Virus record (IMG/VR): IMGVR_UViG_3300010151_000015
Span: 1-56,285 of that record
Source of the DNA: a virus
Lineage: Duplodnaviria; Caudoviricetes
DNA: 56,285 bases
Strand: one strand, 5' to 3'
The notes under the pieces were generated by a model. The model saw nothing but the letters and a program-made list of their open reading frames with translations, searched no databases and was not told the DNA's origin. Shown in pieces: positions 2,855 to 56,285 of the stretch; positions within the stretch are counted from its first letter, which is position 1; the number at the start of each line of letters is the position of its first letter. A program made the position numbers and the translations under genes.

Positions 2855-3585
2855 GCCATCGGGCCTCTGACCCGCATAGGCTGAAGCTGATCTCCCTCTA
2901 GCTGACGCATTAGCCTAGAGCCTTCTACCCTGGCTCTGTTCAATGTCGCTTGATCTGACTCGAAATAGGCGTACTTCTCTAAAGCCTTATAGACAATGAG
3001 CTGATGGTACTGGACCGGCAAGACCGGAGTATCACTATTCGCCGCTAATACCTGCGCCCCGCCCTGGAACAGACCTGTGATCGTATACACAGCATCTGGC
3101 GCTGGGCCGATCACTAGATTGTTCTGAGGGTCCACCGAGACATGAGAGGGATAGCCGTCAGACTGAGTACCGATCTCGTAGATGTTCCGGAACCATTCCC
3201 ATGGCACATAGATCATCCAGTTCTCTGTACCAACACCGCCTGATGTCAGATATATCTTGGGCGGATCTATGCGGTCATTAACATCCCAGCTGTTAAAGGT
3301 CGTGAGAGCAGATCCTGCACCTTCGTTACCACCAGTAATATCAGTGACAGCCGCATCATCCCAGGCGTACCTGTAAGTAGATGCGACAGTGGCTATCTCA
3401 AACTCGTTCCTTAACCATCTCCAAGCGTAGCCGTGCCTATTCTGGATCTCGACATAAGCATTCGTTATCCATGTCACCATCCGCTGTAATTCGCCGGCCT
3501 GACCGGTTACCGCCGTAGGGACCGTGCCCCCGCCAGGGAGATCCGCCTCCAAACATAAGGCCTGACATAGTTCCAAATAAGTCAT
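2851..3585 (-). CDS. Tail tubular protein A / head-tail adaptor
   Basis: 244 aa with N-terminal MTYLELCQ and C-terminal P-x-LP-x-QYHQLIVYKAL, as in podovirus adaptors; coupled to the downstream gene. Confidence 0.7.
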   Translation of the reverse strand: MTYLELCQALCLEADLPGGGTVPTAVTGQAGELQRMVTWITNAYVEIQNRHGYAWRWLRNEFEIATVASTYRYAWDDAAVTDITGGNEGAGSALTTFNSWDVNDRIDPPKIYLTSGGVGTENWMIYVPWEWFRNIYEIGTQSDGYPSHVSVDPQNNLVIGPAPDAVYTITGLFQGGAQVLAANSDTPVLPVQYHQLIVYKALEKYAYFESDQATLNRARVEGSRLMRQLEGDQLQPMRVRGPMA

Positions 3586-3598
3586 GCATCTCCTTTAC

Positions 3599-4195
3599 TT
3601 AGGACGGCGCTGCAAGACACTCGGCCAGCCACGCCTTCCCTCTGGGGTTACGGTCCTCGACTACCTCAAACGGATAGCGCAGGCCCCTGTGAGCAACATA
3701 GCGCACAGATCTGGCCCCATCTCCGTCAGTGAACGGCTGGTTCTCATAATGAACCGGCTTCGCCCGAGTCAGCGCCTCAACGAAATATCTCGCCACTGTC
3801 TTGAGCTGGCCACGGATAAAGGTCTCTTTCTGACCATTGACCGAGACAATAAAGGCCCGATCAGCCTGCTTCTCAGCAGTGTCATGGACCCTGATAACCA
3901 CCGGCTCGTGATTGAACTCCTCCAGCTTCGCCTTGTCAGCAAATGCCTGGGAGTCAATGTCCGGCAAGTTTTCAGTAATCAGCTCCGGAGTATCCTCAGT
4001 ACCACCGATTGTCATCAGGGTTGTCTGATTCGGAACCTCGGCCTCTGTCGTCTTCGTCATGACAGCTGGCCGATCCTTTGCATCCATACCCGTTAACTTC
4101 TCGAGAATCGCGGCCATGTTGGCATCGGTCTTCTCGATATGGTCATTGAGCGTTTTGTTAAGCTCGAAAGTCGTTGGACTCTTAGACTTAGTCAT
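3599..4195 (-). CDS. Hypothetical protein of the morphogenesis module
   Basis: 198-aa ORF with a strong RBS (AGGAAGG/GGAG), between capsid-decoration and adaptor genes. Confidence 0.6.
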   Translation of the reverse strand: MTKSKSPTTFELNKTLNDHIEKTDANMAAILEKLTGMDAKDRPAVMTKTTEAEVPNQTTLMTIGGTEDTPELITENLPDIDSQAFADKAKLEEFNHEPVVIRVHDTAEKQADRAFIVSVNGQKETFIRGQLKTVARYFVEALTRAKPVHYENQPFTDGDGARSVRYVAHRGLRYPFEVVEDRNPRGKAWLAECLAAPS

Positions 4196-4219
4196 CTTCT
4201 ACCTTCCTCTCCTTCGTTT

Positions 4220-11803: not shown

Positions 11804-13390
11804 TTAGTAACCGACTCCCGCATCGGTCATCCTCCTCGGTACAACAACGAGAGGGGGAGGCTCTCGTTTTGGCGCTACAGTCTTTATGTCCTCATCACAT
11901 AATCTACTCATCATATCAAGAAAATCATCGAACTCTGCTAGAGGAAAGTTCCCGTACTCCTCTTCAATAATGTCTTTTATGATATCACGGGCCGATCCGT
12001 CAACCATTGTTTTGAACATCGTCTGGGGTAACCAGATCCTCGATGCCGCGAACAAGGGGATTAATCGCCGGATTCTGTCCTCTTTCACCATCTTGCCGCC
12101 AAGTTCTATGATCTTGAACCGGTAGTCCAGCTGCTCCATCTGAGTTTGAATATGAGCGATGTCAGTCTGTGCGCCGTACTGCTCATATCCTACCGCTACG
12201 GGCCTATACTGCTCATGCCATTCAAAGAGCTGCTTGGTCCTCTCGACAAGGTTTAAACGGTCCCTGATCCCGTCTAGCAAGTAATAGTTCCCATCCGGCG
12301 CGTAGGAGAATACCCCCATGGCCGTGTTATCTCTCCGGCCTTTGACCCCAGGCTTTCTCTCTCCTGCTGGATCTACGAGGATTATCTTGTTGCCTCTTCG
12401 CGGCATCTTAGTGTAATAGTTCAGCCAGGACATCTGCAGCTCACCACCACCCTTCGGAGTAGGTCTTTGCTGATACTGTCCTGCAGTAACGTATGGACCC
12501 CAGACTTCCTTCTGGGCCGTGATGGCTTTCTCGTCCACCATCCCCCTGAACAGTAATTCACCTGGGGAAGTTCTCGGATCAACAATATCAGGCCTATCGA
12601 TGTCCCGATCCGCATTGAAGATAATATCTGGATCGTATTCCATGGGAATGACGAGATTGACCCACTTCAGTTCTTTGTAGGCCAACAGGTGGCCGGTGAT
12701 GTCCTTCGCATGCAACCTCTGCATGATGACAATTACAGCAGATTCGTTGGCAGAGTTAAGGCGAGAAGACCAAGCATTATCCCAGCGATCAAGAATATTT
12801 TCTCTCTCTCTATCGGATTCGGTTCCTTGCGCGTCATGAGGGTCATCCCATATTACCGTGTCACCACGTTTACCAGTAACCTTGGCCGTCACACCCTGTG
12901 ATAGCCTTAATCCCTGCTGTGTGTTGGTGAACAGGGTTTTCTCGCCCTGCTCCTTGGATATCGAGACCGTATCTCCCCAGTTCTCCTGATACCACTCGGA
13001 ATCAATCAGCTGGCGCATCTTCAATGCGTCTCTGGTGGCCAATGTCCCCTCGTTACTGCCGCACAAGAATCTATGCGGAGCGTCCCTTGTCCATACCCAG
13101 GCAGGGTAGAACACCGAGACAATCAGGCTCTTCATCATGCCTGGGGGAATGTTGATGATTAATCGCCGGATCTTCTCGGCCCTGACCGCTTCAAGATAAG
13201 CGCATAGCACATCGAGATGCCAGTTCCACTTCAGCTCGGTCCCAGGCTCTAATATAGACCATGCTGCCCTGATAAACTCTGCTAGGGATTCTTCCTGCTT
13301 GCGCTTGTTGTTGCGGATCTTGACCTGCTCCAACATGGCATGGAGGTCTTCATCCCCCAGACTTGATAGATCTAGCTGTGCTTCACTCAT
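11804..13390 (-). CDS. terL: Terminase large subunit
   Basis: RLIINIPPGMMKS (Walker A region), GKRGDTVIWDDPH (Walker B), IVIMQRLH, YQQRP; nuclease domain with ILVDPA and FDDFLDMMS. Confidence 0.95.
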   Translation of the reverse strand: MSEAQLDLSSLGDEDLHAMLEQVKIRNNKRKQEESLAEFIRAAWSILEPGTELKWNWHLDVLCAYLEAVRAEKIRRLIINIPPGMMKSLIVSVFYPAWVWTRDAPHRFLCGSNEGTLATRDALKMRQLIDSEWYQENWGDTVSISKEQGEKTLFTNTQQGLRLSQGVTAKVTGKRGDTVIWDDPHDAQGTESDRERENILDRWDNAWSSRLNSANESAVIVIMQRLHAKDITGHLLAYKELKWVNLVIPMEYDPDIIFNADRDIDRPDIVDPRTSPGELLFRGMVDEKAITAQKEVWGPYVTAGQYQQRPTPKGGGELQMSWLNYYTKMPRRGNKIILVDPAGERKPGVKGRRDNTAMGVFSYAPDGNYYLLDGIRDRLNLVERTKQLFEWHEQYRPVAVGYEQYGAQTDIAHIQTQMEQLDYRFKIIELGGKMVKEDRIRRLIPLFAASRIWLPQTMFKTMVDGSARDIIKDIIEEEYGNFPLAEFDDFLDMMSRLCDEDIKTVAPKREPPPLVVVPRRMTDAGVGY

Positions 13391-16228: not shown

Positions 16229-16555
16229 TCACTCATCACTCTTCCCCTTCTCAGCCGCCCTCTTCCGCTTCATGTAATTAGCATGCTTCTCCCGACGAGC
16301 AGTGCATACAGCACAATCACCACCAGACCCACTCAGCGACTTCTCCAATACCGCAATCCTTAAATCGCGCTCCTCGCACCCAAGACACGCTTCAAGACTA
16401 TCAACCACCTTCTGGGCCATATCATCCACCCCCTTCTTCGTCACCTTAACTTTGACAGCCGGAGTCTTCACCTTCTCATCCGGCCAAATATGTGCCTCGC
16501 TACTCCAATGCTTACTACCGCATACCGAACACTTCGGCGCTCCTGTCTCTCCCAT
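16229..16555 (-). CDS. Small Cys-rich (Zn-binding), basic putative DNA-binding protein
   Basis: CSVC..H, CLGC and CAVC, then REKHANYMKRKRA. Confidence 0.6.
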   Translation of the reverse strand: MGETGAPKCSVCGSKHWSSEAHIWPDEKVKTPAVKVKVTKKGVDDMAQKVVDSLEACLGCEERDLRIAVLEKSLSGSGGDCAVCTARREKHANYMKRKRAAEKGKSDE

Positions 16556-16558
16556 CTC

Positions 16559-16672
16559 TGTGAACTCACTGTGAACTCACAAACCACAATATACCCCTGT
16601 GAACTCACATTCAACCCATTTGTGAACTCACAACCCCCTTTTGTGAACTCACATCAGGATATGTGAACTCAC
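16559..16672. repeat. Six copies of TGTGAACTCAC(A) (operator/iteron-like)
   Basis: Exact 11-mers start at 16559, 16570, 16598, 16621, 16642 and 16662; the 12-mer TGTGA-AC-TCACA has palindromic arms. Confidence 0.9.
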
Positions 16673-17058
16673 ATACCAATGCTGCTCAACACAATCCCCT
16701 ACACAGCCCAGCAGCTCTGGGTAAAGCACATCACACAATTACTTGGAAAATTTTGTGAAAATTGAGACGGGCATCCTATAAGAATTGAACAAGGCGCGGC
16801 GCGGCCTGTAAAAGGGGGGTCGGGGGGGGTCCGAAAGCCATAGAATGCGGCCTCCAGGGGAAAAGAAAGTTTCACACCTGCACATAAATAGTGGCCTCTA
16901 GCCGATCCGCAACCTTTATCGTGATGCACGAGACCTCCTATTGATGCGTCAATGAGCCGTCAATCACCACTATCATCCCCGTGAATGGGGCCTTGGATCT
17001 GGTGGATCTAGCCTGGGGTCAGGTGTTGATCCCAATAGAATCAATGACTTAGCTGCCT

Positions 17059-17086
17059 ATTTAACATAATGTTTATTACACGCACT
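17059..17086 (-). promoter_or_regulatory. dif: dif-like XerC/XerD recombination site
   Basis: - strand AGTGCGTGTAA-TAAACA-TTATGTTAAAT. The XerD arm is identical to E. coli dif (TTATGTTAAAT), the XerC arm matches 8/11 to GGTGCGCATAA, the spacer is 6 bp, and the site is intergenic. Confidence 0.85.
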
Positions 17087-17201
17087 CTCTATCCCCCAGC
17101 ACCTACTTACCCTGGAGGCCAATGAATACGGGGAGGTTGCCCCAACCCAGTGTTACCTGGGTCAAGGACTGCTACGGCCTCGAAGAGGAGGGAAGCCGTC
17201 A

Positions 17202-17945
17202 TTAATGCTGAGAGTCGCGCCGTTCCTGGCTCTCAGCCTGAAGCTGCTGCTCGAGGGCCATGAGGGCCGTTGGGTCCATATTGTCCAGAACCCTTGCTGA
17301 ATGGGCCTGCTGGGCATTGTCCTCTTTAAAGAGACCGCCTAGCTTCGCCAGGAGCTGCCACGCTGATGTCCTGGCACTCGAATTGGTGTCAGGCCCCTCT
17401 CCACGGGCTTCTACAAGCAATCCGGTGCTGACAAGCTCCACCGTTATGCCTGCTGCTCGGGAAATCTCACGCTCCAACGCCCAGATATGTCTTTTTATCT
17501 TCGGGTTCTTAAGCAGTGCGGAGGCTTGGCTTGCTGCTGACTTTTCGCTGTACCCTGCTTTAATAGCGGCTTGTGTGCCATTGTTGGATACGACCCACTC
17601 TCTGATGAAAGCTCTTTGGAACTTGTTAAGGTCCTGATCAGAGTCTAGGTCTACAGGAGGAGGTTCAATGGTTTCCTGGGGTTTGGTGAGCATTCCGGCC
17701 ATAAGACGCTGTAAACGGTCTGCAGCGGCCTGATACGGGCTTTCTGAGAGCTTTGTACCGTTTCGGACTACTGGACCCAGTTCCACCACTTTCTGGAGGT
17801 TGTACTTCCATTGGGCAAAGTTCTCGCAATAGGCCAGTAGGACTGGGGGAGAGTCAAGTATATCCTGGCCTTCAAGGAGATCGATGATAGTGGGCCAGTA
17901 TGCCTGGGCCTCTTTACTCAATCCGGCTGGTTGCTTGGTTGTCAT
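17202..17945 (-). CDS. terS: Terminase small subunit (P27-like N-terminal half + Terminase_2 HTH C-terminal half)
   Basis: C-half: QRAFIREWVVSNNGTQAAIKAGYSEKSAASQASALLKNPKI (classic TerS HTH). N-half: LSKEAQAYW...LLAYCENFAQW...GPVV...ESPY. Confidence 0.85.
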   Translation of the reverse strand: MTTKQPAGLSKEAQAYWPTIIDLLEGQDILDSPPVLLAYCENFAQWKYNLQKVVELGPVVRNGTKLSESPYQAAADRLQRLMAGMLTKPQETIEPPPVDLDSDQDLNKFQRAFIREWVVSNNGTQAAIKAGYSEKSAASQASALLKNPKIKRHIWALEREISRAAGITVELVSTGLLVEARGEGPDTNSSARTSAWQLLAKLGGLFKEDNAQQAHSARVLDNMDPTALMALEQQLQAESQERRDSQH

Positions 17946-19020: not shown

Positions 19021-19049
19021 TTGCAATACGAAGGATCTTTCGCTAATGT
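19021..19049 (+). promoter_or_regulatory. Sigma70-like promoter of the + strand early operon, with a palindromic operator in its spacer
   Basis: TTGCAA-17 bp-TAATGT; the spacer contains the near-palindrome CGAAGGATCTTTCG. Confidence 0.6.
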
Positions 19050-19089
19050 TCGGCATTCCGAACACACGCAAGCCAAGGAGAACGACAGA

Positions 19090-20052
19090 ATGACTAAGCT
19101 ACAAGAGATTACAGACCGTAAGATTGAAGCCCAGATTTGGGACCTCGCCAACCAGGGAGCCATTTTCTATGTCTCTCATTCTGGGGGCAAAGATTCCCAG
19201 GCAACCTACCTCTACCTATCCAGTGGCCTCCATATCCCTACAAGCCAGATCGTGGTTGTCCACGCTGACCTGGGTGAAGTCGAGTGGACTGGGGTGAAGG
19301 ACCATATCCGAAACACCATCCTCCATCCCCTCAATGTAGTAAGTGCGATTTACAAGGATGGATCTGAAAAGACCCTGCTCAATCTTGTTGAGAAGCGATT
19401 CGACACAAGGCCCGAAGCTCCCTCCTGGCCCAGCAGCGCAGCCCGATACTGCACTTCAGATCTGAAGCGCGGCCCGATTGAGAAGTTCATCCGCAATGAC
19501 CTCAAGGCCAGGGGCAAGACCCTCGCCGTCAATGTATGTGGAATCAGGGCTGAAGAGTCATCTGCCAGGGCCAAGAAGGTCCCGTTTCAGCAGAATGACC
19601 GGCTCTCCATCGCCAGCCGCACGGTTTATGACTGGTATCCCATCTTCGACTGGTCAACTGATGAGGTGTTCCAGTGCATCGCTGATTACGATGAGAAGCC
19701 TTTCTGGGCCTACGCTGAAGGGAATGACCGCCTGAGCTGCGTGTTCTGCGTGTTCGGATCTAAGGGTGATATCGCCAGGGGCCGCAAGTATCGTCCCGAG
19801 CTGTTCGCCAAGTACGTTGCCCTGGAGGAGAAGACTGGGTACTCAGTATTCGCCAAGGAATCGATCATCGCCAGGAGCAGCCAGTTCACTGTTACGGTAA
19901 CCCACAGGGAAGGCCTGGACACTGAGCAGGTCCAGTTCTTCACCGAGGCCGAGGTCAGGGCATTCACCAGGGAAGAGGTGAAATGGCAGTACACTGATCG
20001 AGTCATCTGCGAAGCCCTGGATATCGATGAGGCTGGTGACTGGACCGCATAG
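19090..20052 (+). CDS. PAPS reductase-family (PP-loop, Fe-S) protein 1
   Basis: VSHSGGKDS PP-loop, RYCTSDLKRGPI, GIRAEESSAR, YPIFDW and RLSCVFC. ATG at 19090 has an AAGGAG RBS; the track's TTG start at 19021 coincides with the -35 box. Confidence 0.9.
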   Translation: MTKLQEITDRKIEAQIWDLANQGAIFYVSHSGGKDSQATYLYLSSGLHIPTSQIVVVHADLGEVEWTGVKDHIRNTILHPLNVVSAIYKDGSEKTLLNLVEKRFDTRPEAPSWPSSAARYCTSDLKRGPIEKFIRNDLKARGKTLAVNVCGIRAEESSARAKKVPFQQNDRLSIASRTVYDWYPIFDWSTDEVFQCIADYDEKPFWAYAEGNDRLSCVFCVFGSKGDIARGRKYRPELFAKYVALEEKTGYSVFAKESIIARSSQFTVTVTHREGLDTEQVQFFTEAEVRAFTREEVKWQYTDRVICEALDIDEAGDWTA

Positions 20053-20106
20053 TCTGACTGATGAGGCCTGAATGGCCGAAACCCCCGAGACCTGGGGGTC
20101 TTAGAC
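20052..20106 (+). ncRNA. Hammerhead ribozyme 1 (type I), predicted cleavage after C20100 (GUC)
   Basis: Stem I GTCTGA/TTAGAC; core CTGATGA (20058-64); stem II GGCC-TGAAT-GGCC; GAAA (20078-81); stem III CCCCC-GAGACCT-GGGGG; then TC. Confidence 0.93.
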
Positions 20107-20136
20107 AATTAACATAAACTGATTAGGAGTACGAAA

Positions 20137-21147
20137 ATGAGGCAACTGATTACATCCGATAGACTGCAAGACCTCAAGGCCCTGGTAGCCAAAGGCCACA
20201 AGATCAACCTGTGCAACGGCCTGGGAGTCGATTCCACCGCTGTATCTGTCCTGCTGCACAGTGAGGGCATCCGGCCTGATGTCATCACCTTTGCCGATAC
20301 AGGAGGTGAGAAGCCTGAGACACTGGCACACCGGCATATTCTGAACGAATGGTACGCCTCGATTGGCTGGCCCCAGATCACTGTCTGCGCCAAGGTCACC
20401 TTGCCTTCCACCAGCTATGAAGACCTGACTGGGAACTGCCACGATAACGAGACTCTGCCTTCCCTGGCCTTCGGCAAGAAATCCTGCAGCATCAAGTGGA
20501 AGCAAATCCCCCAGGACTATTTTCTGAAGGGCTGCAAGGCTCCGCACAACCCGATCCCAGTCCATCCTCTCTGGGCCGAGTATCAGGAGACCGGCCTCAA
20601 GATCATCAAGATCATTGGATACGATGCTGGCCGTGCTGACATCAGGCGATCCAAGAAACTCAAGGGTGAAGACAATGACTTCATTTTCAACTATCCGCTG
20701 CAGAGTGTGGGCTGGGCCAGGGCTGAGTGCGTTGCAGCAATCACTGAGGCGGGACTGCCAGTGCCTGTGAAATCCGCATGTTATTACTGCCCAGCGTCGC
20801 AAAAATGGGAGCTGTTCTGGTTAGCAGGCACTCACCCCCATCTGTTCCTGAATGCCCTGCAGCTTGAGCGCGGTGCATTGACTGGTCACCACAGTCGATT
20901 CGCAGACGATGTTGACTGGATCACCTGGGAAGATCTGGTCAGCGATTACGATGAGTACCCCAGCCTGAATACCTGCGTTGGCCTGGGCAGATCCTTTGCC
21001 TGGAACCAGTGGGCCAGGATCGAAGGGATCGTGGATCGTGACGGCAAGTTCATTGGCAACCGCACCGAGCTTCTCAGGAAGGCTACCGAGCCGCGAGAGG
21101 CCAAGGAAGCCACAGGCGGCAACGCACAAGATGCGAGGACCTGCTAG
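20137..21147 (+). CDS. PAPS reductase-like / adenine-nucleotide alpha-hydrolase protein 2
   Basis: NGLGVDST PP-loop variant, FADTGGEKPET, SCSIKWK, IIGYDA, YPL and PVKSACYYCP. Confidence 0.85.
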   Translation: MRQLITSDRLQDLKALVAKGHKINLCNGLGVDSTAVSVLLHSEGIRPDVITFADTGGEKPETLAHRHILNEWYASIGWPQITVCAKVTLPSTSYEDLTGNCHDNETLPSLAFGKKSCSIKWKQIPQDYFLKGCKAPHNPIPVHPLWAEYQETGLKIIKIIGYDAGRADIRRSKKLKGEDNDFIFNYPLQSVGWARAECVAAITEAGLPVPVKSACYYCPASQKWELFWLAGTHPHLFLNALQLERGALTGHHSRFADDVDWITWEDLVSDYDEYPSLNTCVGLGRSFAWNQWARIEGIVDRDGKFIGNRTELLRKATEPREAKEATGGNAQDARTC

Positions 21148-21167
21148 GTCCCAGGGGCTTCGGCCCC

Positions 21168-21219
21168 GCTGTCGAGAGGTGATGCACCTCTCCTGATGAG
21201 GCCCCCAGGCCGAAACAGC
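21168..21219 (+). ncRNA. Hammerhead ribozyme 2 (type III), predicted cleavage after C21173 (GUC)
   Basis: Stem III GCTG/CAGC; TC; stem I GAGAGGTG-ATG-CACCTCTC; core CTGATGA (21193-99); stem II GGCC-CCCA-GGCC; GAAA (21212-15). Confidence 0.93.
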
Positions 21220-21296
21220 TAAAGAAGTATCTTTCGCAGTATAATTATGCGATGATGCGTCAATACGAACCGAAACTGACTAGGAGAACGACAATT

Positions 21297-22352
21297 ATGA
21301 TGAACCTTCCACAAATTAACCTGGGCCAAGCCACGGAGTTTCTGACTTCATGGTGGGCTGCAGGCAATACGAAGCCGGTAACGCTTTGGGGACCTCCAGG
21401 CGTTGGTAAGTCTGCCGGTATCGCTGCAGTACCAGCCCGACTCGAAGAGATCCAGGGTCAGCCCTGGGGCTTCATCGATGCCCGATTGAGCCAGATGGAC
21501 GCAGTGGATCTGCGCGGTGTGCCATCAATCGAGAACGGCATCACCACTTGGAATACGCCATCCTGGCTCCCCAACGTCGAGCGAGACGGCCCCAGGGGGA
21601 TTCTGTTTCTGGATGAGCTGTTCCTGGCATCCCCTTCCACCCTGGCCGGAGCGTATCAACTGCTCCATGATCGATGCCTGGGTGACTATGTTCTGCCCGA
21701 GGGCTGGGTTGTCGTAGCGGCCAGCAACAGGCCCGAAGACAAGGCTGGCCTGACCAGTAACTTCAATACGGCGGTCAGCAATCGATTCGCCACTCACTTC
21801 AACATCATCTGTGATGTTGTCGTCTGGACTGCCTGGGCCGCGCCTCACGGGGTCCTGGCCGAGGTCATCGCTTTCCTGGGTTTCTGTCCCGAACTGATCC
21901 ATGAATACCCCAACGGCCTGGGCAAGGAAAAAGGGGTCATCGGATTCGGTAGCCCCCGTTCCTATGAGGCTGCAAGCGATATCCTGAAGCTGGGCCTGCC
22001 GATAGATCTGGAACATGCCGCCCTCCAGGGTTGCCTGGGATTCGGTATATCTGCCCAGCTTATCGGGTTCATCAAGATCATCCGCAACCTCCCAGATGTT
22101 GCCGGTATCCTGTCAGATCCTGATAACGCGCCAATACCTTCGGCTCCTGATACCCAGTACGCCCTGGCCGCTTTGTTTGCCAGGAAAGCTACCAGGGAGA
22201 ACCTGGGGGCCGTCATCCGGTTTCTGGATCGCATCAGCTCAGAGTTTACCATGCTCACAGTGCTTACAGCGACTGCCCGTGACCCTGAGTTGAAGGAGAC
22301 CCAGGCCTACATCGATCACAAGATCGCCAACAAGGAGGGCTATGTGGGCTAA
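21297..22352 (+). CDS. MoxR-like AAA+ ATPase
   Basis: Walker A GPPGVGKS, DLRGVP, Walker B ILFLDE, VVAASN, NRF and SPRSYE. Start placed at ATG 21297 after a TAGGAG RBS. Confidence 0.9.
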   Translation: MMNLPQINLGQATEFLTSWWAAGNTKPVTLWGPPGVGKSAGIAAVPARLEEIQGQPWGFIDARLSQMDAVDLRGVPSIENGITTWNTPSWLPNVERDGPRGILFLDELFLASPSTLAGAYQLLHDRCLGDYVLPEGWVVVAASNRPEDKAGLTSNFNTAVSNRFATHFNIICDVVVWTAWAAPHGVLAEVIAFLGFCPELIHEYPNGLGKEKGVIGFGSPRSYEAASDILKLGLPIDLEHAALQGCLGFGISAQLIGFIKIIRNLPDVAGILSDPDNAPIPSAPDTQYALAALFARKATRENLGAVIRFLDRISSEFTMLTVLTATARDPELKETQAYIDHKIANKEGYVG

Positions 22353-22353
22353 C

Positions 22354-22411
22354 GTCCTACTGACGATCTGGGATGGTGACCCAGTGAAAGCCCCGAGAGG
22401 GGCTATAGGAT
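22354..22411 (+). ncRNA. Hammerhead ribozyme 3 (type I, U-U at 10.1/11.1), predicted cleavage after A22405 (CUA)
   Basis: Stem I GTCCTA/TAGGAT; core CTGACGA (22360-66); T-CTGGG-ATGGTGA-CCCAG-T; GAAA (22386-89); stem III GCCCC-GAGA-GGGGC; then TA. Confidence 0.88.
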
Positions 22412-22442
22412 AACCACTTAAACTGATACGGAGAACGACATT

Positions 22443-23315
22443 ATGAGGATTCAAGAACAGGCGTTGCTGGTTAGCGTCACCCTCCACTACTGGAGAAATC
22501 GCAAGCTCGACAAGCGATTGACTGCCAAGGTCAACAAGCAGACCAAGGCCAAGAAAGGGACCATTGGAGTCACTAAGGATCTGGTGGACTGTGCGGAGGT
22601 CAAGCAACTCAAGACCCTCCAGGGCCATATCCGAAACAACATCGTGGATCATTTGACCGTCCCCTGGGGCGATCATGGCCAACGGTTGATCACGGTAGAG
22701 CTGCTGGATCGATTTGAAGATGAGCTGGCCCAGGCCGTGCTTGACTGGGATACGCTGCTTCATGACCTGAAGACCAGCTACCCGATTGCAGTGGCAAACT
22801 CTGCTGACCTGCTCGGGACCGCTCACAATCCAGCGGACTACCCGACTACTGACCAGATCATTGCCAAGTACGGCATTGAGGTTAAATACTGCCATCTGCC
22901 AGATAGCGGTGACATCCGAGTGGATCTGCCCCAGTCCAAGATCGATAAGATTGTCAACAGTGTTGATGATCAGGTGACTGCCGGAATCAAGGAAAGCACC
23001 ACTCGAATCCACAAGCGCCTGACAGACAAGCTCGGGGCGCTGATCGAGAAGCTCAGTGGGTACACGGTAGATGCGAAGACCGGCAAGGCTACTGGGAATT
23101 TTGCTCCTACCCTGGTAACCAACCTGACGGATCTGGTAGACATTCTCCCAGCTCTGAATGTGACCGGCGATCCTGCACTGGCCCAGGCCACTGATGAGAT
23201 CGTGGCCCAGTTGGGTGACCTCAAGCCTGAAGCACTCAAGACCAATGAGTCCTACAGGAAGGATACTATCGCAAAGGCCAAGACCATCGCGTCAAGCCTG
23301 GAGGGCCTGTACTAA
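22443..23315 (+). CDS. Helical phage protein often found with AAA/vWA pairs (DUF3150-like)
   Basis: 290 aa; TVPWGDHGQRL, DYPT..QI..KY and LPALNVTGDP.L; coupled to the vWA gene via TAATG. Confidence 0.6.
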   Translation: MRIQEQALLVSVTLHYWRNRKLDKRLTAKVNKQTKAKKGTIGVTKDLVDCAEVKQLKTLQGHIRNNIVDHLTVPWGDHGQRLITVELLDRFEDELAQAVLDWDTLLHDLKTSYPIAVANSADLLGTAHNPADYPTTDQIIAKYGIEVKYCHLPDSGDIRVDLPQSKIDKIVNSVDDQVTAGIKESTTRIHKRLTDKLGALIEKLSGYTVDAKTGKATGNFAPTLVTNLTDLVDILPALNVTGDPALAQATDEIVAQLGDLKPEALKTNESYRKDTIAKAKTIASSLEGLY

Positions 23316-24784
23316 TGAGCGCCGAAGCACTTGCTAAGGTAACCCAGGCCAGGAAGCGGCTCATCCGAGTCGCTCCGTTCTTTGCCCACAAGGCACTGAG
23401 TCTCCGCCTGGAAGAGTCTACACTGACTGAGACAATGGCCACAGACGGGACCTGCGTTTTTTACAACGTGGATTTTGTCCTGGCCATCTCAATCGTGGAG
23501 CTGTTCACAGTTTTCGCCCATGAGGTATGCCATGTAATCCTGTGTCACCATACCCGCCGAGGAACCAGAGACCCCAAAGAATGGAACGTCTCCTGTGATT
23601 TTGCGGCCAACCTGATCATCGATGCCTACCAGCTTTTTCAGCTCCCCCAGGGTGCTTTGCTGGATCAGGCATACAAGGGCCTGAGTGCCGAGAAGATCCA
23701 CACGATCATCTTTGGTAACAGGCCCCAGGAAGATCCTTCAGATGACTCTCAGGAGCCACAGGAGAGCGATTCGGATGAAGAGGGTGATGATACCTCCGAA
23801 GGCGAGAACGCTCCCCAGGATGACCAGGGCGAGGATGAGGGTGATTCTGAAGAGGGTTCTGAGTCCCAGGCCGGCGATGAGGGTGACCAGGGTGATGACC
23901 AGGGTGATTCCGAGTCTGGATCTGGTGATGATGGCCAGGGTGATGATGGTGATGATGCCGGTGATTCAGCCGGATCTGGTGACCAGGGTGACGATGATTC
24001 TGGCAACGGATTAGGCGAGGCCGAAGGTGAAGGCGAGGGCGAAGCTCCTGCCGGTTCCCCAGGCGAAGGCTCTGCTCCTGGCGAGATCTGGGATGCCGTC
24101 AATGACGATGGTGAGCCGCTGACCCCTTCCGAGATCGAGACTGAAGAGCGCGAAATCGCTGCCCAGGTCTTCCAGGCCCATCAGGCCGAGAAGGCAATGG
24201 GCAAAGGTGCTGGCAACGTCCTCGGTGTTCTCGAAGACAAGCTGGAGCAGCCACTGCCCTGGAATGAGATCCTGCAGGAATATTTTTCTGACATGATCTC
24301 TTACGATTCCACATTCGCTAGGCCTAACCGTAGGTTCCTGCACTCTGGCCTGATCCTACCTGGGCCTGATCAGCAGCCCAACGGGGAGCTGGTACTGAGT
24401 ATCGATACTAGCTGCAGCCTGGGCCAGGATGAGTTGGAGACGATAGCCGGTCATATTAACGAGTTAATAGACACGATCCAGCCAAGCCAGACCACTGTGA
24501 TTTACTGTGATGCGGTTGTACAGCATGTCGATGTATTCGAGCGCGGTGAAGAGGTGGAGCTGGTACTGCACGGCGGCGGCGGCACTCGATTCGATCCAGT
24601 GTTTGAGTACTGCGAAGCCGAGGACATCCAGCCGGATGCGCTGATCTACTTCACTGACGGGTACGGATATGTGACAGTCGAAGAGCCAGAGTATCCTGTG
24701 ATCTGGGTGACCACTGCAGTAGCTCCCAGGTTCCAACGAGAAGCTGACCGATTCGGGGAGGTGATCGAAGTCGAGGCCTACTGA
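23315..24784 (+). CDS. Metallopeptidase-like (DUF2201-type) + acidic linker + vWA domain protein
   Basis: TMATDG, HEVCH zincin motif, WNVSCDFAAN; about 110-aa D/E/G/S low-complexity linker; vWA MIDAS-like IDTSCS, GGGTRF and LIYFTDGY. Confidence 0.9.
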   Translation: MSAEALAKVTQARKRLIRVAPFFAHKALSLRLEESTLTETMATDGTCVFYNVDFVLAISIVELFTVFAHEVCHVILCHHTRRGTRDPKEWNVSCDFAANLIIDAYQLFQLPQGALLDQAYKGLSAEKIHTIIFGNRPQEDPSDDSQEPQESDSDEEGDDTSEGENAPQDDQGEDEGDSEEGSESQAGDEGDQGDDQGDSESGSGDDGQGDDGDDAGDSAGSGDQGDDDSGNGLGEAEGEGEGEAPAGSPGEGSAPGEIWDAVNDDGEPLTPSEIETEEREIAAQVFQAHQAEKAMGKGAGNVLGVLEDKLEQPLPWNEILQEYFSDMISYDSTFARPNRRFLHSGLILPGPDQQPNGELVLSIDTSCSLGQDELETIAGHINELIDTIQPSQTTVIYCDAVVQHVDVFERGEEVELVLHGGGGTRFDPVFEYCEAEDIQPDALIYFTDGYGYVTVEEPEYPVIWVTTAVAPRFQREADRFGEVIEVEAY

Positions 24785-35834: not shown

Positions 35835-38800
35835 TTAAAAGTTGTCCTTCGTAGCATCGTGAATGATCTTGGTCAGCTTGGCCTTCCGGATCTTTATCAG
35901 CGATAGCTCCTGAGTTTTCTTGGGACCGCTCTTCTTCGTACTGGAATGGATGATCTTCATCCTCCGGTTGAGCTTCCCCAGCTCTAGCCTCTGCTTGTTG
36001 TAGTAGTCCTCCAGGCCCATGATGTCATTGTTCTTCTTCATCAACCTCTCGGCCTTATCCCACTCCTGATTTTCCCTGGCCTGCCTTATAGCCCCAGCAA
36101 CCATACTGATCTCATCCCCACGCTCATAGAACAGGGAGGTGTACTTGGTATTGTTCGGGTTGGGGTCCTTGGCAAACCGCTTTATGATTGGATAATCTCT
36201 CCATGTCATCGATGGTGCAGTCGGTGCGTCAGTCAGTGGTCTGGTGATCACCGTATCAGCAAGTCCTATGGCAGAGGCCCCCAGCCATCCCAGGTAGCCC
36301 CTGGTGAGGTGTTCTATCTGTACAGGGGAGAATGTGAGCTTCTCATGCATCACCGCTCCCATGGCTTCTGAGGCCTTTATAGCGGTAGGACTTGTCCAGG
36401 GCCGCTTCCTCGATGTAGCCGGTAAATTCTGCAGATCCATACCCAAGGATTCAATCCGCCTGCCGGTATACCAGTTGGTGTTGGTCATCACTTCAGCATA
36501 AGGCTTGGCGATCTGTGGCACTGGGTTGAATGCAAACGTGTCCAGCAGCACATGGCCCAGGCGCTCCCCGAGTAGACTCAGGTTGGCCTCATCATCAGCG
36601 AACTGCTCAACAACCCGCTCTGCTATCGTTGCGAATGCTCCTACCTCGAAAGGCCTGGGCAATGCCCACAGGGTTCCGGTAGGGTCACCTGGGATCTTGA
36701 ACAGGTGATAAGCGTCACGCTCCCACTGCTCTCGTTCCTTGTAATCCTCGTCGTCTTTCATTGACAGGTACATCACCACGGATGCTGCAGCATAAGCCGT
36801 AGTGACCCCTATCCATTGCTTCTTCTGGTTCGGATCTACAGCGGCACGGTAGTTCTTGTCCAGGCCCTGGAGTCTGGCGTTCAGGAAAGGTACTGTCTGG
36901 GATAGATACCTGATGGCCCAGCTAGACCCAGTCCTGTCAAAGGCAAGGTGATCCCGTGCCTCAAAGTTGCGGTCAAGGCGGTTACCAGTTGACTGCACAT
37001 AGTTAGCCGCACGGTTGACATTCTCACCCCGTACACCCAGGTCCTGATACTTGTTGTATGGAGTGGCAACCAGCTTCCGGAGCATGTTCTTGATCTTGTT
37101 ACGGCTATCGAGAATGTTGTCTCGGCCCACACCATTGGACATTAACCGGTCAATAGCATCCTTATCTCCACCATGGACATAGCCTGCATCGCCAAAGATC
37201 CCGCCGCCGGCCAGCATCTCAAGGTAGGTCTTGCCTTCCTTGTCAGTAGCCTGCCAGCCCTGGTAGATGTTCTTCGCAGGATTGACGCTCATGTTGGCAA
37301 CAGCCATCGCCTGGATCGAGTCTCTCAGGAGGTTGGCTATCTTAAATTCTGGGCTAAGGGTCACACCAAAGGTCAGCGCCCTCTTGAATGCCCTGGTCGT
37401 CTTCATCACCCCGTTGTTCAGGCCGTTCCAGTTCAGGGCCGTCAGCGAATCCAGTACCAGCTTGCCCTCTGGTGACTCGTCAATGTTCCACCACTGCTCC
37501 TGGCCGTTGACCATAGTGAAGATGGATTTACTCCCCCTTCCCTTGCGATTTATCTTCTTGGCCAGGGGTACGCCGTTAGTGGTGACCATGTTCTGGGCAG
37601 AGTTAAGCGCAGCGTTGGCCGCATTGTTCTTCAGAGTGGCCGATATCAGGTGATGCCAGTTGGACATGACGTTAGCCAGGGGGTCCTTCAGTGCGCTGTC
37701 CCTGCCGGTCAGTTCCTTGAAGGCCTTCTGTCTGATCAGTCCAGCATCACTGCCGCCTATCATCCTGGGGCCTGCTACATTAGCCTCCTCCATCAGTACA
37801 CGGTAGAAGGGGACATAGAATCCATCGTTCCTCCACTCCATGGCCTGCTTCTTATCTATCAGTCCGGACTCAATCGCCATATCGTAGACAGAGTTCTGCA
37901 GCTCCTCGAAATCCTTGCGAACATCCTCGAACATCTGCTCGTTACCCTTGTTCAGGGTCTTGAGCGCAGCGATCTGTTGATCAGTGAAGTGCTTCTCTTT
38001 GCTGGTCCCGTCCTCGTTGGTCTGGCCCTTCAGCTTCTCAGCCCTATGACCTATCTGCCACCACAACCACTTGTTGAGCAGCTCACCCTTCAGCGGAGCA
38101 GCCAGCTCTTGGAAGCTCTTAGAGCCTTCCTTGATCCCGATAGCCCCGTCCTCCATTATGAGACCAGCGCCTATAACCTTACCCTTATGCGCGGTTCCCA
38201 TGAGGACCTGCATCGCGCCGACTGCAGAGTTGGTCATGTTGGCCATCTTCCATGTCTTGTCACTCTTCAGGACGCTATTAAAGCTGGCGTACTGATCCAC
38301 CATGCCCTGGCGGAATACCTTGGCCCCGTGACTGGCCATCTCTTTCACCCCAGATAGATCCTTGAAAGTCTCTACCATGGACTGAATGCTTTCTTTTACC
38401 TGGGTGGCTACGGTTGGTGGACCCTGGGTCCTGCCTCCACCGTGAGTGATGGCCTCGTCCTGCTCTGGGGTGTACCGCGAGTCCTCATCTTCGGAGAACT
38501 GGGTATCGCCCATCCCCAGGGAACTCATTACCTCTTCCCTGCTGTACCTCTGGTCAGGGGATAATATGTCATCCAGGCCAACGGATTCTAGCTCCCCCTT
38601 TTTTATCCCAGGCAATCTCGAAATTTTACGCAAAATTTCGCGGCCTCGTGCCGACTTCCCAGCAGCCCACTGTGGGAGCTTCATCTCAGAAATCGCTTTT
38701 TGTATGCCGCCCATCACAGGTGACACAGGTTTTTCAGTCTCAGGAGCATTTTCCTGGGAGAATAATGTCTGCCCCTCCATAGCCTTCTGGCGCATCTTGT

Positions 38801-41800
38801 CGGTGATGGGGATGGTCTGGACTTCTAGTGCAGTCTCTGGTGGCTCTCTCCAATCAATGATTGAATCAACAGAGGGAGGCCCAGTCGGAGCCTCGGCTTC
38901 TCGTGTTTGTATGCTAGTGGTCCCCAGCCTAGCCTTCTTGTCCAGCTTACGAGCAGCGTCCTTCATTAGGTTGGGGACTAGGCGATCATAGAAATTCTTC
39001 ATGCCCTTGCCGCCAACATTCAGATCCAAACCAGACAGAACCTTGATCTGCCCCCATTGCTTGTCCTGTTCGCCATTCACTATCTTCTCTGTCAGCTCCT
39101 TGCCAAAGATGCCGGCCATCTTCTTCTCCGGAACCGAAGACATATCCTGACCACCGACACGATCCAAAGCAGCCGCGTCTGGGCCTGCTCCCTTTCGAGT
39201 AACGAATACCTTGTATGTCCCGTCATCGTTTTTCTGGTAAGCAATTTTTTCTACATGCTCTTCCAGCCGGTATCTGTCAGCTTGTGTCTGGCCATCAGTC
39301 CAAGCCACCTGATCATATCCACCCTCCGCCGCCATACGCAGAGCCTTCTTCAGACCCAGAGCCACCCAGTCATTACCTTTGAACGGACCATCGGGCGGGG
39401 CGTATGTCCATGCAGCATCGTGCATCTTCTTGTGTTCTTTCGCTAACGCTATAGTCTCAGGAGTAGCGTCCTTCTTGGAATCGTACTCCTCGTTTTCGCG
39501 GATGAACCTCATCGCTTGGAACGTGGTGTCGTAACCCCAGTTATTCTCCTCCTTCAATTTGTTTCTCAAATCAAGGGCGGTCTTCTTTTTACGCTCCCTA
39601 GTCTTCTCGGTGACTGTCTCCTTATATCCGGAGTCCTTCCCCTTTTGATGCCAGTCGCTCTGGATCTCCTCGATGAATAAGATCCTCTCACCATTGCTGG
39701 TGGTGCGATCATCGACTCGCATGTGCATTATTACGTTAGGCTTTTCTCTACCGTAGTGGCCGCTCTCATAATTACGAGGAACCCCAGCGTCTATGTTTGC
39801 GCGAACCAACGCCCTCCTCTCATTCAGCGCGGACATTTCTCGGCCTGTTGGCGTTGTTACCTTCCACCAGCCTTTATCATTATCGGGAATCTCTTCTGCC
39901 GTATACCCTTCCGGCATGGTCGTGCCTCTCTCAGGCAGACTCAACAGGATTTCTCTATAGTTCTCACCGCCAGGGACAATCAGCGATCCTTTCCCGTAAT
40001 GGGCCGTGGTTAGAGCAACGCCGGTATGCTCAATATATTCTCTGGCGAGTTCATCAAGGGCGTCTTCCTCTTCCTCCCAGTATCTATCTTCTCCGTAGTC
40101 ATCCCCTAACGTCTCTTCGGTGGCCTTATCTACGGCGTAGACCTTGCCGGTTCTCGCTCGAACACGGAACTCGGTTCTCTCAGCCACTTTCTCCATTGCC
40201 CTCTCGTGACGCTCCTCCTCAGAGATTTCACCGAGCCTTGTGGTCTCGATCTGTATACCGTTGTTATCCACATAGGCCTGCAGCTCTTCGAGAGATAGCT
40301 TGCCCTTGTGTGCATCGATGAACTCCTCCAGATCCAGAGCCTCGATCTCAGCCTGCTTGACCCCAGGTAGCCCCTTCAATGTGTTGAACATCTGTCGGGC
40401 CGGACCTTTGGTCTGCTTCATACTGGACACAGCCCTGGATAGGCCGGAGAAGAAACCATCGTTCACTGGCGCGTCATCCTGGGAGAACAATGGCTGTCCA
40501 CCCATAGCGCCTTCACGCATCTTGTCTGTGATCTGGATCTTGTGGATGCCGACCATGCCCAACTCAGTAGGCACACCCATACCGTCCCACTCAACCCTGG
40601 CCTTCTTGTCTAGCTTCCGGCCCACAGTCTTCATCAGGTTAGGCACAGTCTTGTCGTAGAAGGAGATCATCCCCTCACCACCAACGTCCAGATCCAGGCC
40701 TTTTATCCTAGAGGCACTTGACTCAATGGAGTTCGGCGGGTTCTTCTGGCCCTCGTCATTAACGATCCGCTGCGCGAGTTCCTTGCCAACTACCTTGTTC
40801 AGCTCTTCAGCCGTGTAGGTATCATCGATAGCCATGGCAGAAGAAATAGCACCCTTGCCTGTGGCTGATATCTTGTAACGATCAACAGGAGCAATGTCCA
40901 GATCAAGATCATCGTTCTCCTCTATCATGAAGTCTCTTTCTTGCTCGGCTACTTCCCTGGTGGCGTAGATTTTCTTCACCTTGCCGTCAAGGGTCACCCC
41001 GAAGTGGCCCACCTTCTCGTAAGTGACGCTCGTTATGTTCTGTCGGAGGTTGTACCTGTCGGCCTGGGTGTTGCCGGTTGTCCATGCAACAGAGTCGTAC
41101 CCGCCCTCTGCCGCCATGCGTAACGCCTTCTTCATCCCAAGCTCTACCCAGGAGTTGTTCTTGAAGGGGGTTGGACTGGGCCTGTTCTCCCTGGCGAAGT
41201 GTTCGTCAGAGGACATCATCCCTTCCTCGTCCCATCGAGCATCAGCCTTGTTCGCGTCATTCTCGGCAGCCCACCAGTCACTCTGGATCTCTTCCAAGAA
41301 AAGTATCTTCTCTCTCCTGGCAGAAGTTCTATCATTGACGCGCAAATGCAGCAGCAGGTTGGGGGAGTCTGGGAAGTGACTGCCAGTATAATCCTCAGTA
41401 CCTTTCTTCACTTTATCCACCTTGTTAATGGATAATGGATAGGCCTCAAGGCGCTGAGTAATCACATCTCCCGCTGGGCGCTCTCCAACATGCAGGTTCT
41501 GATTATCATTGTCGGGGTCATATTGTTCTGTCCATGCCTGTTCCGCCTCTTCTTGAGTAGCATAGGCCTCGATAATGTTGCCATCATCAAACAGCCCCCA
41601 CCTCCTAGTTAGGCTTTCATATTGATCCACATGAGCCTCGGCCTCTTCTCTAGTAGAGAAATCAGCAGGGAACGCTCCTTCAACCTCGAAGTAATCTGTC
41701 TCGGACTCTTGTCTTGACGGCAGGGTAAACAGGATTTCCCTGTAGTTGTCTCCGCCTGGGAGGTTGAGCAAGTGGCTGCTGTATTCTGTCTCATCCTTGC

Positions 41801-56050: not shown

Positions 56051-56285
56051 TTATCCCACATAACAATACCTCACAATACGTTCCATCCAAGGAGCCGGAT
56101 TGTCTTCATCCCCAAACACCTTGAAGCTGTGTCCGTGACCGTTCACAACATGCAGCTCTCCGCCATGTTTTTGATGCATCTTGGATGACTGTGACAGCTG
56201 TACGTGTTCATCTTCTGCCCCGTGGAACAACAAAAAGGATTCTGGGAATGATCTGTACATGGGGGAGCCGCCTTGCAGTTTGTCA
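56051..56285 (-). CDS. Alpha/beta-hydrolase (esterase/peptidase) C-terminal fragment, runs off the right edge
   Basis: Frame is open to the window end; SP...FLLFHGAEDEHVQLSQS...GHGHSF carries the catalytic Asp and His motifs. Confidence 0.7.
   Translation of the reverse strand, partial: DKLQGGSPMYRSFPESFLLFHGAEDEHVQLSQSSKMHQKHGGELHVVNGHGHSFKVFGDEDNPAPWMERIVRYCYVG

Follow-up and report, generated by a model that had tools for sequence, protein, structure and literature searches.

What is a recombination site of the host Xer type doing in a tailed phage that has no recombinase gene of its own? The question is raised by a marine tailed phage represented by a linear IMG/VR virus record (CheckV completeness 93%); the whole stretch analyzed, 56,285 bp long, is called the window below. 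Read directly, its minus strand from 17086 to 17059 is AGTGCGTGTAA-TAAACA-TTATGTTAAAT, a dif-like core. Xer-dependent integration has been described for inoviruses, double jelly-roll phages, microviruses and genomic islands (PMC12715192, PMC5357621, and PMC2731167, in their accessible parts), and the Xer-like recombinases of Bacillus plasmid prophages are phage-encoded, according to the accessible part of PMC9703825. The portion available of a review on phage-plasmids treats multimer resolution as a plasmid-like function and, within that portion, does not mention Xer (PMC11652158). In the literature searched, with sequences given only in figures or supplements lying outside its scope, we came across no account of tailed phages that carry host Xer sites.

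A XerC/XerD-Type Core Beside the Small Terminase Gene

The initial annotation of this DNA reported a dif-like site after terS with a perfect E. coli-type XerD arm, and both direct reading and a pattern search bear it out. The core and its neighboring features are as follows.

17059-17086, minus strand: 28-bp XerC/XerD-type core site, from the sequence and a degenerate dif pattern
17086-17076, minus strand: XerC-type arm AGTGCGTGTAA of the 28-bp core
17075-17070, minus strand: 6-bp center TAAACA of the 28-bp core
17069-17059, minus strand: XerD-type arm TTATGTTAAAT of the 28-bp core
17202-17945, minus strand: terS, small terminase subunit, directly upstream of the site (PHROG phrog_51, 1.1e-20; Pfam Terminase_2 PF03592, 2.5e-18)
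17087-17201, minus strand: XerC-side flank from the terS stop to the site, about 115 bp with two small hairpins (blastn and alignment with the sister lineage)
17146-17161 and 17129-17144, minus strand: the hairpins in the XerC-side flank (terminator-like hairpin after terS)
16884-17058, minus strand: lineage-specific XerD-side segment of 175 bp containing AATCAATGACTTAG, with an unrelated 123 bp in its place in the sister lineage
16559-16672, minus strand: six exact copies of GTGAGTTCACA (six matches; 0 of 100 shuffles reach six)

The dif site of E. coli K12 is printed as GGTGCGCATAATGTATATTATGTTAAAT in the accessible part of Carnoy and Roten (2009; PMC2731167), and the phage site agrees with it at 22 of 28 positions (XerD arm 11/11, XerC arm 8/11, center 3/6). 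Agreement with the Hahella chejuensis dif printed there reaches 24/28, with 9/11 in the XerC arm and a match that includes the first two center bases on the XerC side. The same XerD arm, at 11/11, is given in that source for E. coli K12, Yersinia, Pseudomonas, Neisseria and other dif sites. The XerC arm of the phage site is weaker than in chromosomal dif, and the 11-6-11 spacing is correct. A degenerate dif pattern allowing up to three mismatches matched the window once and none of 100 dinucleotide-preserving shuffles, so the quality of the match exceeds chance. Judged by its sequence, the 28 bp is a genuine XerC/XerD-type core. It is also the one full site in the window: a second XerD-like 11-mer (20107-20117, one mismatch) overlaps a ribosome-binding site, and no convincing XerC arm was found beside it.

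At a distance of 6 bp from the XerD arm, at 17039-17052 of the plus strand, is an AATCAATGACTTAG motif that may resemble an IHF-type site, just where the initial annotation had placed it. Its suggested role as an accessory site found no support, as the motif is not conserved and the segment holding it is wholly replaced in the sister lineage.

Surroundings of the Site and Gene Content of the Phage

The site sits within a 646-bp gap that is bounded by terS on one side and by a 108-aa ORF (16229-16555, minus strand) on the other, and no Rfam match was found in this gap, including its block at 16700-16883. The two lineages agree at 95% across this non-coding block, which includes the G-rich run GGGGGGTCGGGGGGGGTCC (plus strand), against just 71% in their terS genes. 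In the segment at 16884-17058 there are several ATTGA(T/C)/ATCAAT-like words, and the unrelated segment of the sister lineage also has ATCAAT repeats. On the XerC side, the hairpin at 17146-17161 reads CCCAG-GTAACA-CTGGG on the minus strand and CTGGG-GTAACA-CCCAG in the sister lineage. The loop is identical while 5/5 stem pairs are swapped, which argues that the hairpin after terS is a selected structure. A 14-nt inverted repeat (16849-16862 and 17107-17120, 93% complementary) brackets the Xer site together with the variable segment, and it is kept in the sister lineage with a matching change in both arms (CAGGG to CAGCG). We rejected these repeats as the ends of a mobile cassette, since the homology boundaries fall elsewhere.

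The six copies of GTGAGTTCACA are spaced 11-28 nt apart, just upstream of the 108-aa ORF, which is Cys-rich, and about 390-530 bp from the Xer site. They are conserved in two contigs of the sister lineage (L004 and L136). They are treated as neighbors of the Xer site, and they could be terS (pac), operator or iteron sites. Past the repeats come the 108-aa ORF, a DUF7338 gene, a ParB-N/methyltransferase gene and terL (11804-13390).

Among its other genes the phage has an SU10-type portal, a replication initiator, a primase-helicase and an SSB, as well as the recombination genes Erf, exonuclease, NinB and NinG. A 4,370-aa ORF (35835-48947, minus strand) has an LPD38 'large polyvalent protein' domain and DUF7178. 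A cluster at 19021-24784 (plus strand), with two PAPS-reductase-like genes, a CobS/MoxR-like ATPase and a DUF2201 metallopeptidase with a VWA domain, likely consists of DNA-modification or auxiliary genes.

We scanned 49 distinct ORFs, each against Pfam, PHROGs or both. As the initial annotation had stated, the window has no recombinase gene: six-frame searches found neither a tyrosine recombinase (PF00589) nor a serine recombinase (PF00239). Six-frame searches of the window likewise gave no match to XafT (DUF3653, PF12375) and none to ParA-type ATPase, S24 repressor or HTH_3 families, and with the ORF scans they turned up no plasmid-partition or lysogeny gene there.

The initial annotation had also proposed looking for an integrase in the unsequenced remainder of the genome. 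The last 235 bp of the window (56051-56285) are the end of an alpha/beta-hydrolase gene that is 95-100% identical in other SU10-like phage contigs, where it is preceded by a different tail-fiber cassette. A 31-nt word from the end of the window matched three contigs. One contig running past the window's end (L184) continues beyond the shared hydrolase with an SU10-type adaptor, tail genes, an RCC1-repeat fiber gene and a methyltransferase, and there is no recombinase among its 10 ORFs. On this basis the missing part is probably a variable tail-fiber cassette, which is likely a host-range cassette and the reason for the assembly break. A scan with a 949-aa protein, meant to bridge the missing ~7%, gave no match.

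Conservation of the Site in Close Relatives

A terS search of IMG/VR returned one relative (L004, 71% identity), and a terS-profile search of metagenome contigs returned eight loci, six of them close. The initial annotation had made presence in close relatives a test of the site. It is found at the same place in all seven of them (terS 71-98%) and is intact in six, in contigs that are possibly not independent. They fall into two lineages.

Lineage A (the window, L133 and L134; terS 98%): AGTGCGTGTAA-TAAACA-TTATGTTAAAT
Lineage B, the sister lineage (L004, L135, L137 and L138; terS 71%): AGTGCACGTAA-TCTGTA-TTATGTTAAAT
Lineage B, damaged (L136): as lineage B minus one base in the XerD arm

In the damaged copy (L136, about 4180-4206) the XerD arm reads TTAT-TTAAAT, which may be a real loss or a sequencing error.

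When L004 is aligned with the window by blastn, identity of about 70% runs from terS through the site and breaks off at 17059, precisely where the XerD arm ends on its outer side. Beyond this point lie unrelated sequences, 123 bp in L004 and 175 bp in the window, and past the replaced segment the two are 95% identical over 3.7 kb. Within the aligned region, the lineages share without change the 18 nt leading into the XerC arm and the 12 nt from the last center base through the XerD arm (11/11). The site itself has six differences, two in the XerC arm and four in the center (4/6 bases). Such conservation of the arms around a differing center looks like a purifying pattern, and it fits a site that would need to match only its own copy.

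Among the relatives compared, the site is restricted to the close ones. It is absent within 10 kb of terL both in L005 (terL 51%, a gammaproteobacterial MAG) and in L006 (terL 40%, a Cellvibrionaceae MAG), and from five IMG/VR records with the same tail protein, two of which are 97-100% complete. The distant relatives found via the tail protein have only structural genes in common with the window.

Host Type, Chromosomal dif and the Search for Integrated Forms

The arms fit the beta-/gammaproteobacterial type, judging from their letters. This agrees with the gammaproteobacterial-type host first proposed, in that the accessible part of PMC2731167 gives this XerD arm, letter for letter, for many dif sites of beta- and gammaproteobacteria. 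The nearest terL relatives found in genomes are gammaproteobacterial MAGs.

The initial annotation offered integration at the host dif as one of two options. Several elements without an integrase behave in this way: CTXphi, VGJphi, TLCphi, the dif-type double jelly-roll vibriophages and the gonococcal genetic island, collectively IMEXs, have, like the window phage, a dif-like site as attP (PMC5357621 and PMC12715192, accessible parts). By analogy, host XerCD would integrate the phage at the chromosomal dif after circularization. The lack of an integrase in the window and among the ORFs of L184 is what this reading would expect, as is the 24/28 agreement with the H. chejuensis dif that extends to two center bases on the XerC side (PMC2731167, accessible part), and size is no obstacle given large IMEXs such as the 57-kb gonococcal island (PMC5357621, in its accessible part). 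We found no description of a tailed IMEX of ~56-60 kb in the literature searched.

The comparison with sampled dif sites speaks against it. We searched twice through 401 genomes drawn from the class to which the L005 MAG belongs, which may not be the class of the host. The first search yielded 22 GTGC-type dif sites with arms GTGCG[C/T]ATAA, whose centers were TGTATA in 16 cases, TATATA in three and others in three, with neither TAAACA nor TCTGTA among them. The second, for a center family covering both phage types, gave 55 matches in 53 genomes, two of which are unpublished (G143 and G310) and enter the count only; 43 had TATATA, one had TAAACA and none had TCTGTA. We rejected the single TAAACA match (G394) as a host dif: no XerC-like arm accompanies it, the DNA around it is AT-rich and without phage homology, and it is put down to chance. 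The phage spacers, proposed as something to look for in candidate host dif sites, are thus absent from credible chromosomal dif in the 401 genomes. TAAACA agrees with TATATA-type centers at 4/6 positions and with TGTATA at 3/6, in sampled dif sites that may not be those of the host. That the site might itself be a chromosomal dif or lie in a host flank was rejected as well, with the record viral, phage genes on both sides and a center that is not TGTATA-like.

Integrated forms did not appear either. In all eight contigs (the window and seven relatives) the DNA on either side of the site is that of the phage, and an IMG/VR scan for phage flank plus site found only the contig of L004, which is unintegrated. 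The stretch or part of it occurs in 20 metagenome runs, marine or seawater, that belong to 18 studies, and six of the runs may be its source. In Logan contigs from four runs the site is bridged by phage DNA on both sides (one contig spans 16176-18061 with no difference), and no host junction or loose end toward host DNA was found in these contigs, which drop rare forms. Lineage B occurs beside lineage A in three of the four runs, the replaced form joining 16836/16868 to 17075. Contig depth was tried as a clue to DNA ends and was uninformative. The same holds for KOPS polarity: the word GGGNAGGG has four copies, rarer than the shuffle mean of 13.6, all on one strand and not converging on the site.

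Compared with known IMEXs, then, the window phage is tailed, ~56-60 kb in size, without an integrated form found, with a center unlike sampled dif and without XafT, the TLC-type factor. Further points against integration are that the centers differ between sister lineages, that the window has no repressor, and that a phage with its own integrase (Mulock, below) has the same site design. We consider integration at dif unlikely; it keeps some weight because the phage has no integrase and because the sampled dif sites may not be those of its host.

As a side observation, a Cellvibrionaceae MAG has two dif-like sites with center TCTATA on one strand, 10.8 kb apart (G002:C64, 11245-11271 and 22040-22066); the pair could mark an element integrated at dif.

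Similar Sites in Plasmids and Cultured Tailed Phages

With a 61-nt query, sites identical at 25 of 28 positions turned up in E. coli plasmids, pCP53-mcr among them. On this plasmid (L002), dif-like sites in opposite orientation at 685-711 and 3002-3028 enclose genes for an ISKpn21 transposase and a DUF6904 protein, a layout that resembles a dif module. In such modules (pdif), pairs of opposite sites bound a gene module, whereas the window phage has one full site only. The E. coli STEC383 chromosome (L003, 3000-3027) has GGTGCGTGTAA-GGACCA-TTATGTTAAAT in a satellite-like element with a VapE primase and a portal, just upstream of the small genes that precede the element's portal gene. Plasmid kinship of the helicase was rejected: its best PLSDB matches were 40-52 kb, and the one examined is a P22-like phage circle with an integrase and without the site.

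A shorter, 36-nt query matched 1,647 PLSDB plasmid records and 51 GenBank phage records, 30 of the latter over at least 80% of the query. The sites in cultured phages are listed below.

Klebsiella phage Mulock: GGTGCGGGTAA-CAGTCA-TTATGTTAAAT, between terL and portal
Sodalis phiSG1: GGTGCGGGTAA-CACAAA-TTATGTTAAAT, between head genes
Vibrio phage VPHZ6: center TGACCA, beside ParA
Vibrio phage 10N.237.312.C11_PE002A: center TGACCA, beside ParA and plasmid-replication genes
Cronobacter phage CR3 (Vequintavirinae): AGTGCGTATAA-GGTGTA-TTATGTTAAAT, in a non-coding gap
Cronobacter PBES 02: match at BLAST level, about 450 nt or less from the record start
Vibrio RYC: XerD arm with one mismatch, about 450 nt or less from the record start
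Yersinia phage YP3: center GAACCC, in repeated copies

The sites of the Mulock group, phiSG1, VPHZ6, PE002A, CR3/PBES 02 and YP3 lie in non-coding gaps and combine a GTGCG-type XerC arm with a non-dif center, as in the window phage. The XerD arm is exact (11/11) in the sites read from Mulock, phiSG1, VPHZ6, PE002A, CR3 and YP3, and in three of the six phage groups with such sites the gap is in the head or packaging module. No second copy was found in the CR3, PBES 02 and RYC records. In YP3 (L187) sites identical together with their flanks stand in direct repeat 2.4 kb apart (599-626 and 3000-3027), around two head-module genes; BLAST places the site three times in the record, which could be a duplication or an assembly artifact.

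These cultured phages have enterobacterial or vibrio hosts, some have an integrase or ParA/RepA, and none is a sequence relative of the window phage. They are informative about function, as tailed phages in which Xer integration would be unnecessary or unlikely, the two Vibrio phages with ParA and the Vequintavirinae member CR3 included. Mulock has its own integrase along with an excisionase, a cII-like activator, O/P replication genes and NinG, and phiSG1 is described as an extrachromosomally replicating phage-derived element (PMC3091646) whose center, CACAAA, differs from that of the Sodalis dif, TGTAGA, as given in the accessible part of PMC2731167.

An IMG/VR scan for GTGC-type sites extended the pattern to at least 120 stretches, with 126 sites among the matches listed. 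Only nine of those 126 have the center TGTATA, which indicates that viral contigs hold many Xer-type sites that do not copy chromosomal dif. The commonest arms among the 126 sites listed were GGTGCGGGTAA (45) and AGTGCGTATAA (22), with centers such as CAGTCA, CACCCA and CGACCA.

Proposed Recombination Between the Phage's Own Sites

Our preferred reading, held tentatively and at a little short of even chances, is that host XerC and XerD recombine two copies of the phage's own site to give monomeric circles. The 28 bp would be a working site for binding and recombination by the host enzymes, which would turn two phage sites in direct repeat into one and release a monomeric circle. Direct-repeat pairs could come from dimers or multimers of a circular replicating genome, or from the terminal redundancy of freshly injected DNA, and the non-dif center would keep the site from productive recombination with the chromosomal dif. 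We infer XerCD binding, the self-with-self reaction and the life-cycle stage from the DNA sequence. As to stage, we are about evenly divided between multimer resolution of circular or carrier-state forms and cyclization after injection. The second option in the initial annotation, resolution of circular multimers by host XerCD, comes close to this reading.

We favor a reaction between the phage's own sites over one with the host dif because the arms are kept while the center drifts, because the center is unlike those of sampled dif sites, because counterparts occur in phages that integrate by an enzyme of their own or do not integrate, and because no host junction was found. Packaging usually starts in the region of terS, and with its position ~115 bp past that gene the site could fall in a terminal redundancy. 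No partition or lysogeny gene was found, which leaves a stable plasmid state without support.

The nearest known counterparts are plasmid Xer sites (cer of ColE1, psi of pSC101 and the dif-like sites of large plasmids), where, as proposed here, a replicon without a recombinase borrows host XerC and XerD. They have in common with the phage site an 11-6-11 core, a well-kept XerD arm, a weaker XerC arm, a non-dif center and a conserved flank on the XerC side. The carrier here differs from those of cer and psi in being a tailed phage in which no partition or maintenance genes were found, with the site in the packaging module. Compared with a stable circular replicon, it has its own replication initiator and primase-helicase but no ParA-type gene. 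At cer and psi, PepA together with ArgR or ArcA binds an accessory sequence of ~180 bp on the XerC side; the phage flank is 115 bp long, ~70% conserved and has two hairpins. Phage P1 makes monomer circles from dimers or from terminally redundant linear DNA by means of Cre-loxP. That system, too, is a recombination site in a tailed phage, whereas the recombinase here would be the host's.

Some observations weigh against our reading. Erf, exonuclease, NinB and NinG already supply the phage with recombination functions, and the site is missing from L005, L006 and the five IMG/VR records, with a damaged XerD arm in L136. According to the accessible part of PMC5357621, sites other than dif normally recombine by Xer with the help of FtsK or of accessory sequences and proteins; both multimer resolution and cyclization would presumably need such help, which counts against them.

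The site might instead dock XerC and XerD without productive recombination, as a roadblock, as a regulatory complex between operons or as a means of recruiting FtsK. Its position between the terminator-like hairpin after terS and the next operon would suit this role, and the accessible part of PMC2800217 reports that FtsK stops at XerCD-dif. The single full site in the window and the retention of the full two-arm geometry with its 6-bp spacing, unneeded for binding alone, make docking improbable in our view.

We give still less credence to a hot spot at which host XerCD join co-infecting phages, plasmids and satellites for module exchange or co-integrate formation. The lineage comparison invites such an idea, with homology ending exactly at the outer end of the XerD arm, ~70% identity on one side, unrelated DNA followed by 95% identity on the other, and lineages A and B co-occurring in the same runs; site pairs also bound a module on pCP53-mcr. 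The different centers of the two lineages should, however, block exchange between them, one site alone bounds no module, and the second boundary, at 16883, has no Xer-like site. That the site is a chance look-alike or functionless relic, as the one-base deletion in L136 and the distant relatives without a site might suggest, is very improbable when no shuffle matches, the arms are conserved while adjacent non-coding DNA is replaced, and the design recurs in many phages.

The preferred reading, recombination between the phage's own sites, has a broader version that we regard as speculative and probably wrong in its full extent. It holds that many tailed phages carry undescribed host-Xer sites with non-dif centers, beside packaging genes or in end repeats, and that host XerC and XerD use two copies in the terminal redundancy to circularize the injected genome. 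Should it be true, circularization by host XerC/XerD would be the host-supplied equivalent of P1 Cre-loxP.

Implications for Tailed Phages

Use of host XerC/XerD is established for plasmids and for filamentous, double jelly-roll and micro-phages, and in the literature searched we found no paper that extends it to tailed phages. The case presented here is a conserved Xer-type site in a phage in which no recombinase, repressor or partition gene was found. The design has gone unannotated in cultured phages of Klebsiella, Sodalis, Vibrio, Cronobacter and Yersinia and in at least 120 IMG/VR stretches. If these sites work, their arms would report the Xer type of the host and so provide a new host-range marker, and tailed phages would have an overlooked step that depends on host Xer, be it genome closure, monomerization or carriage.
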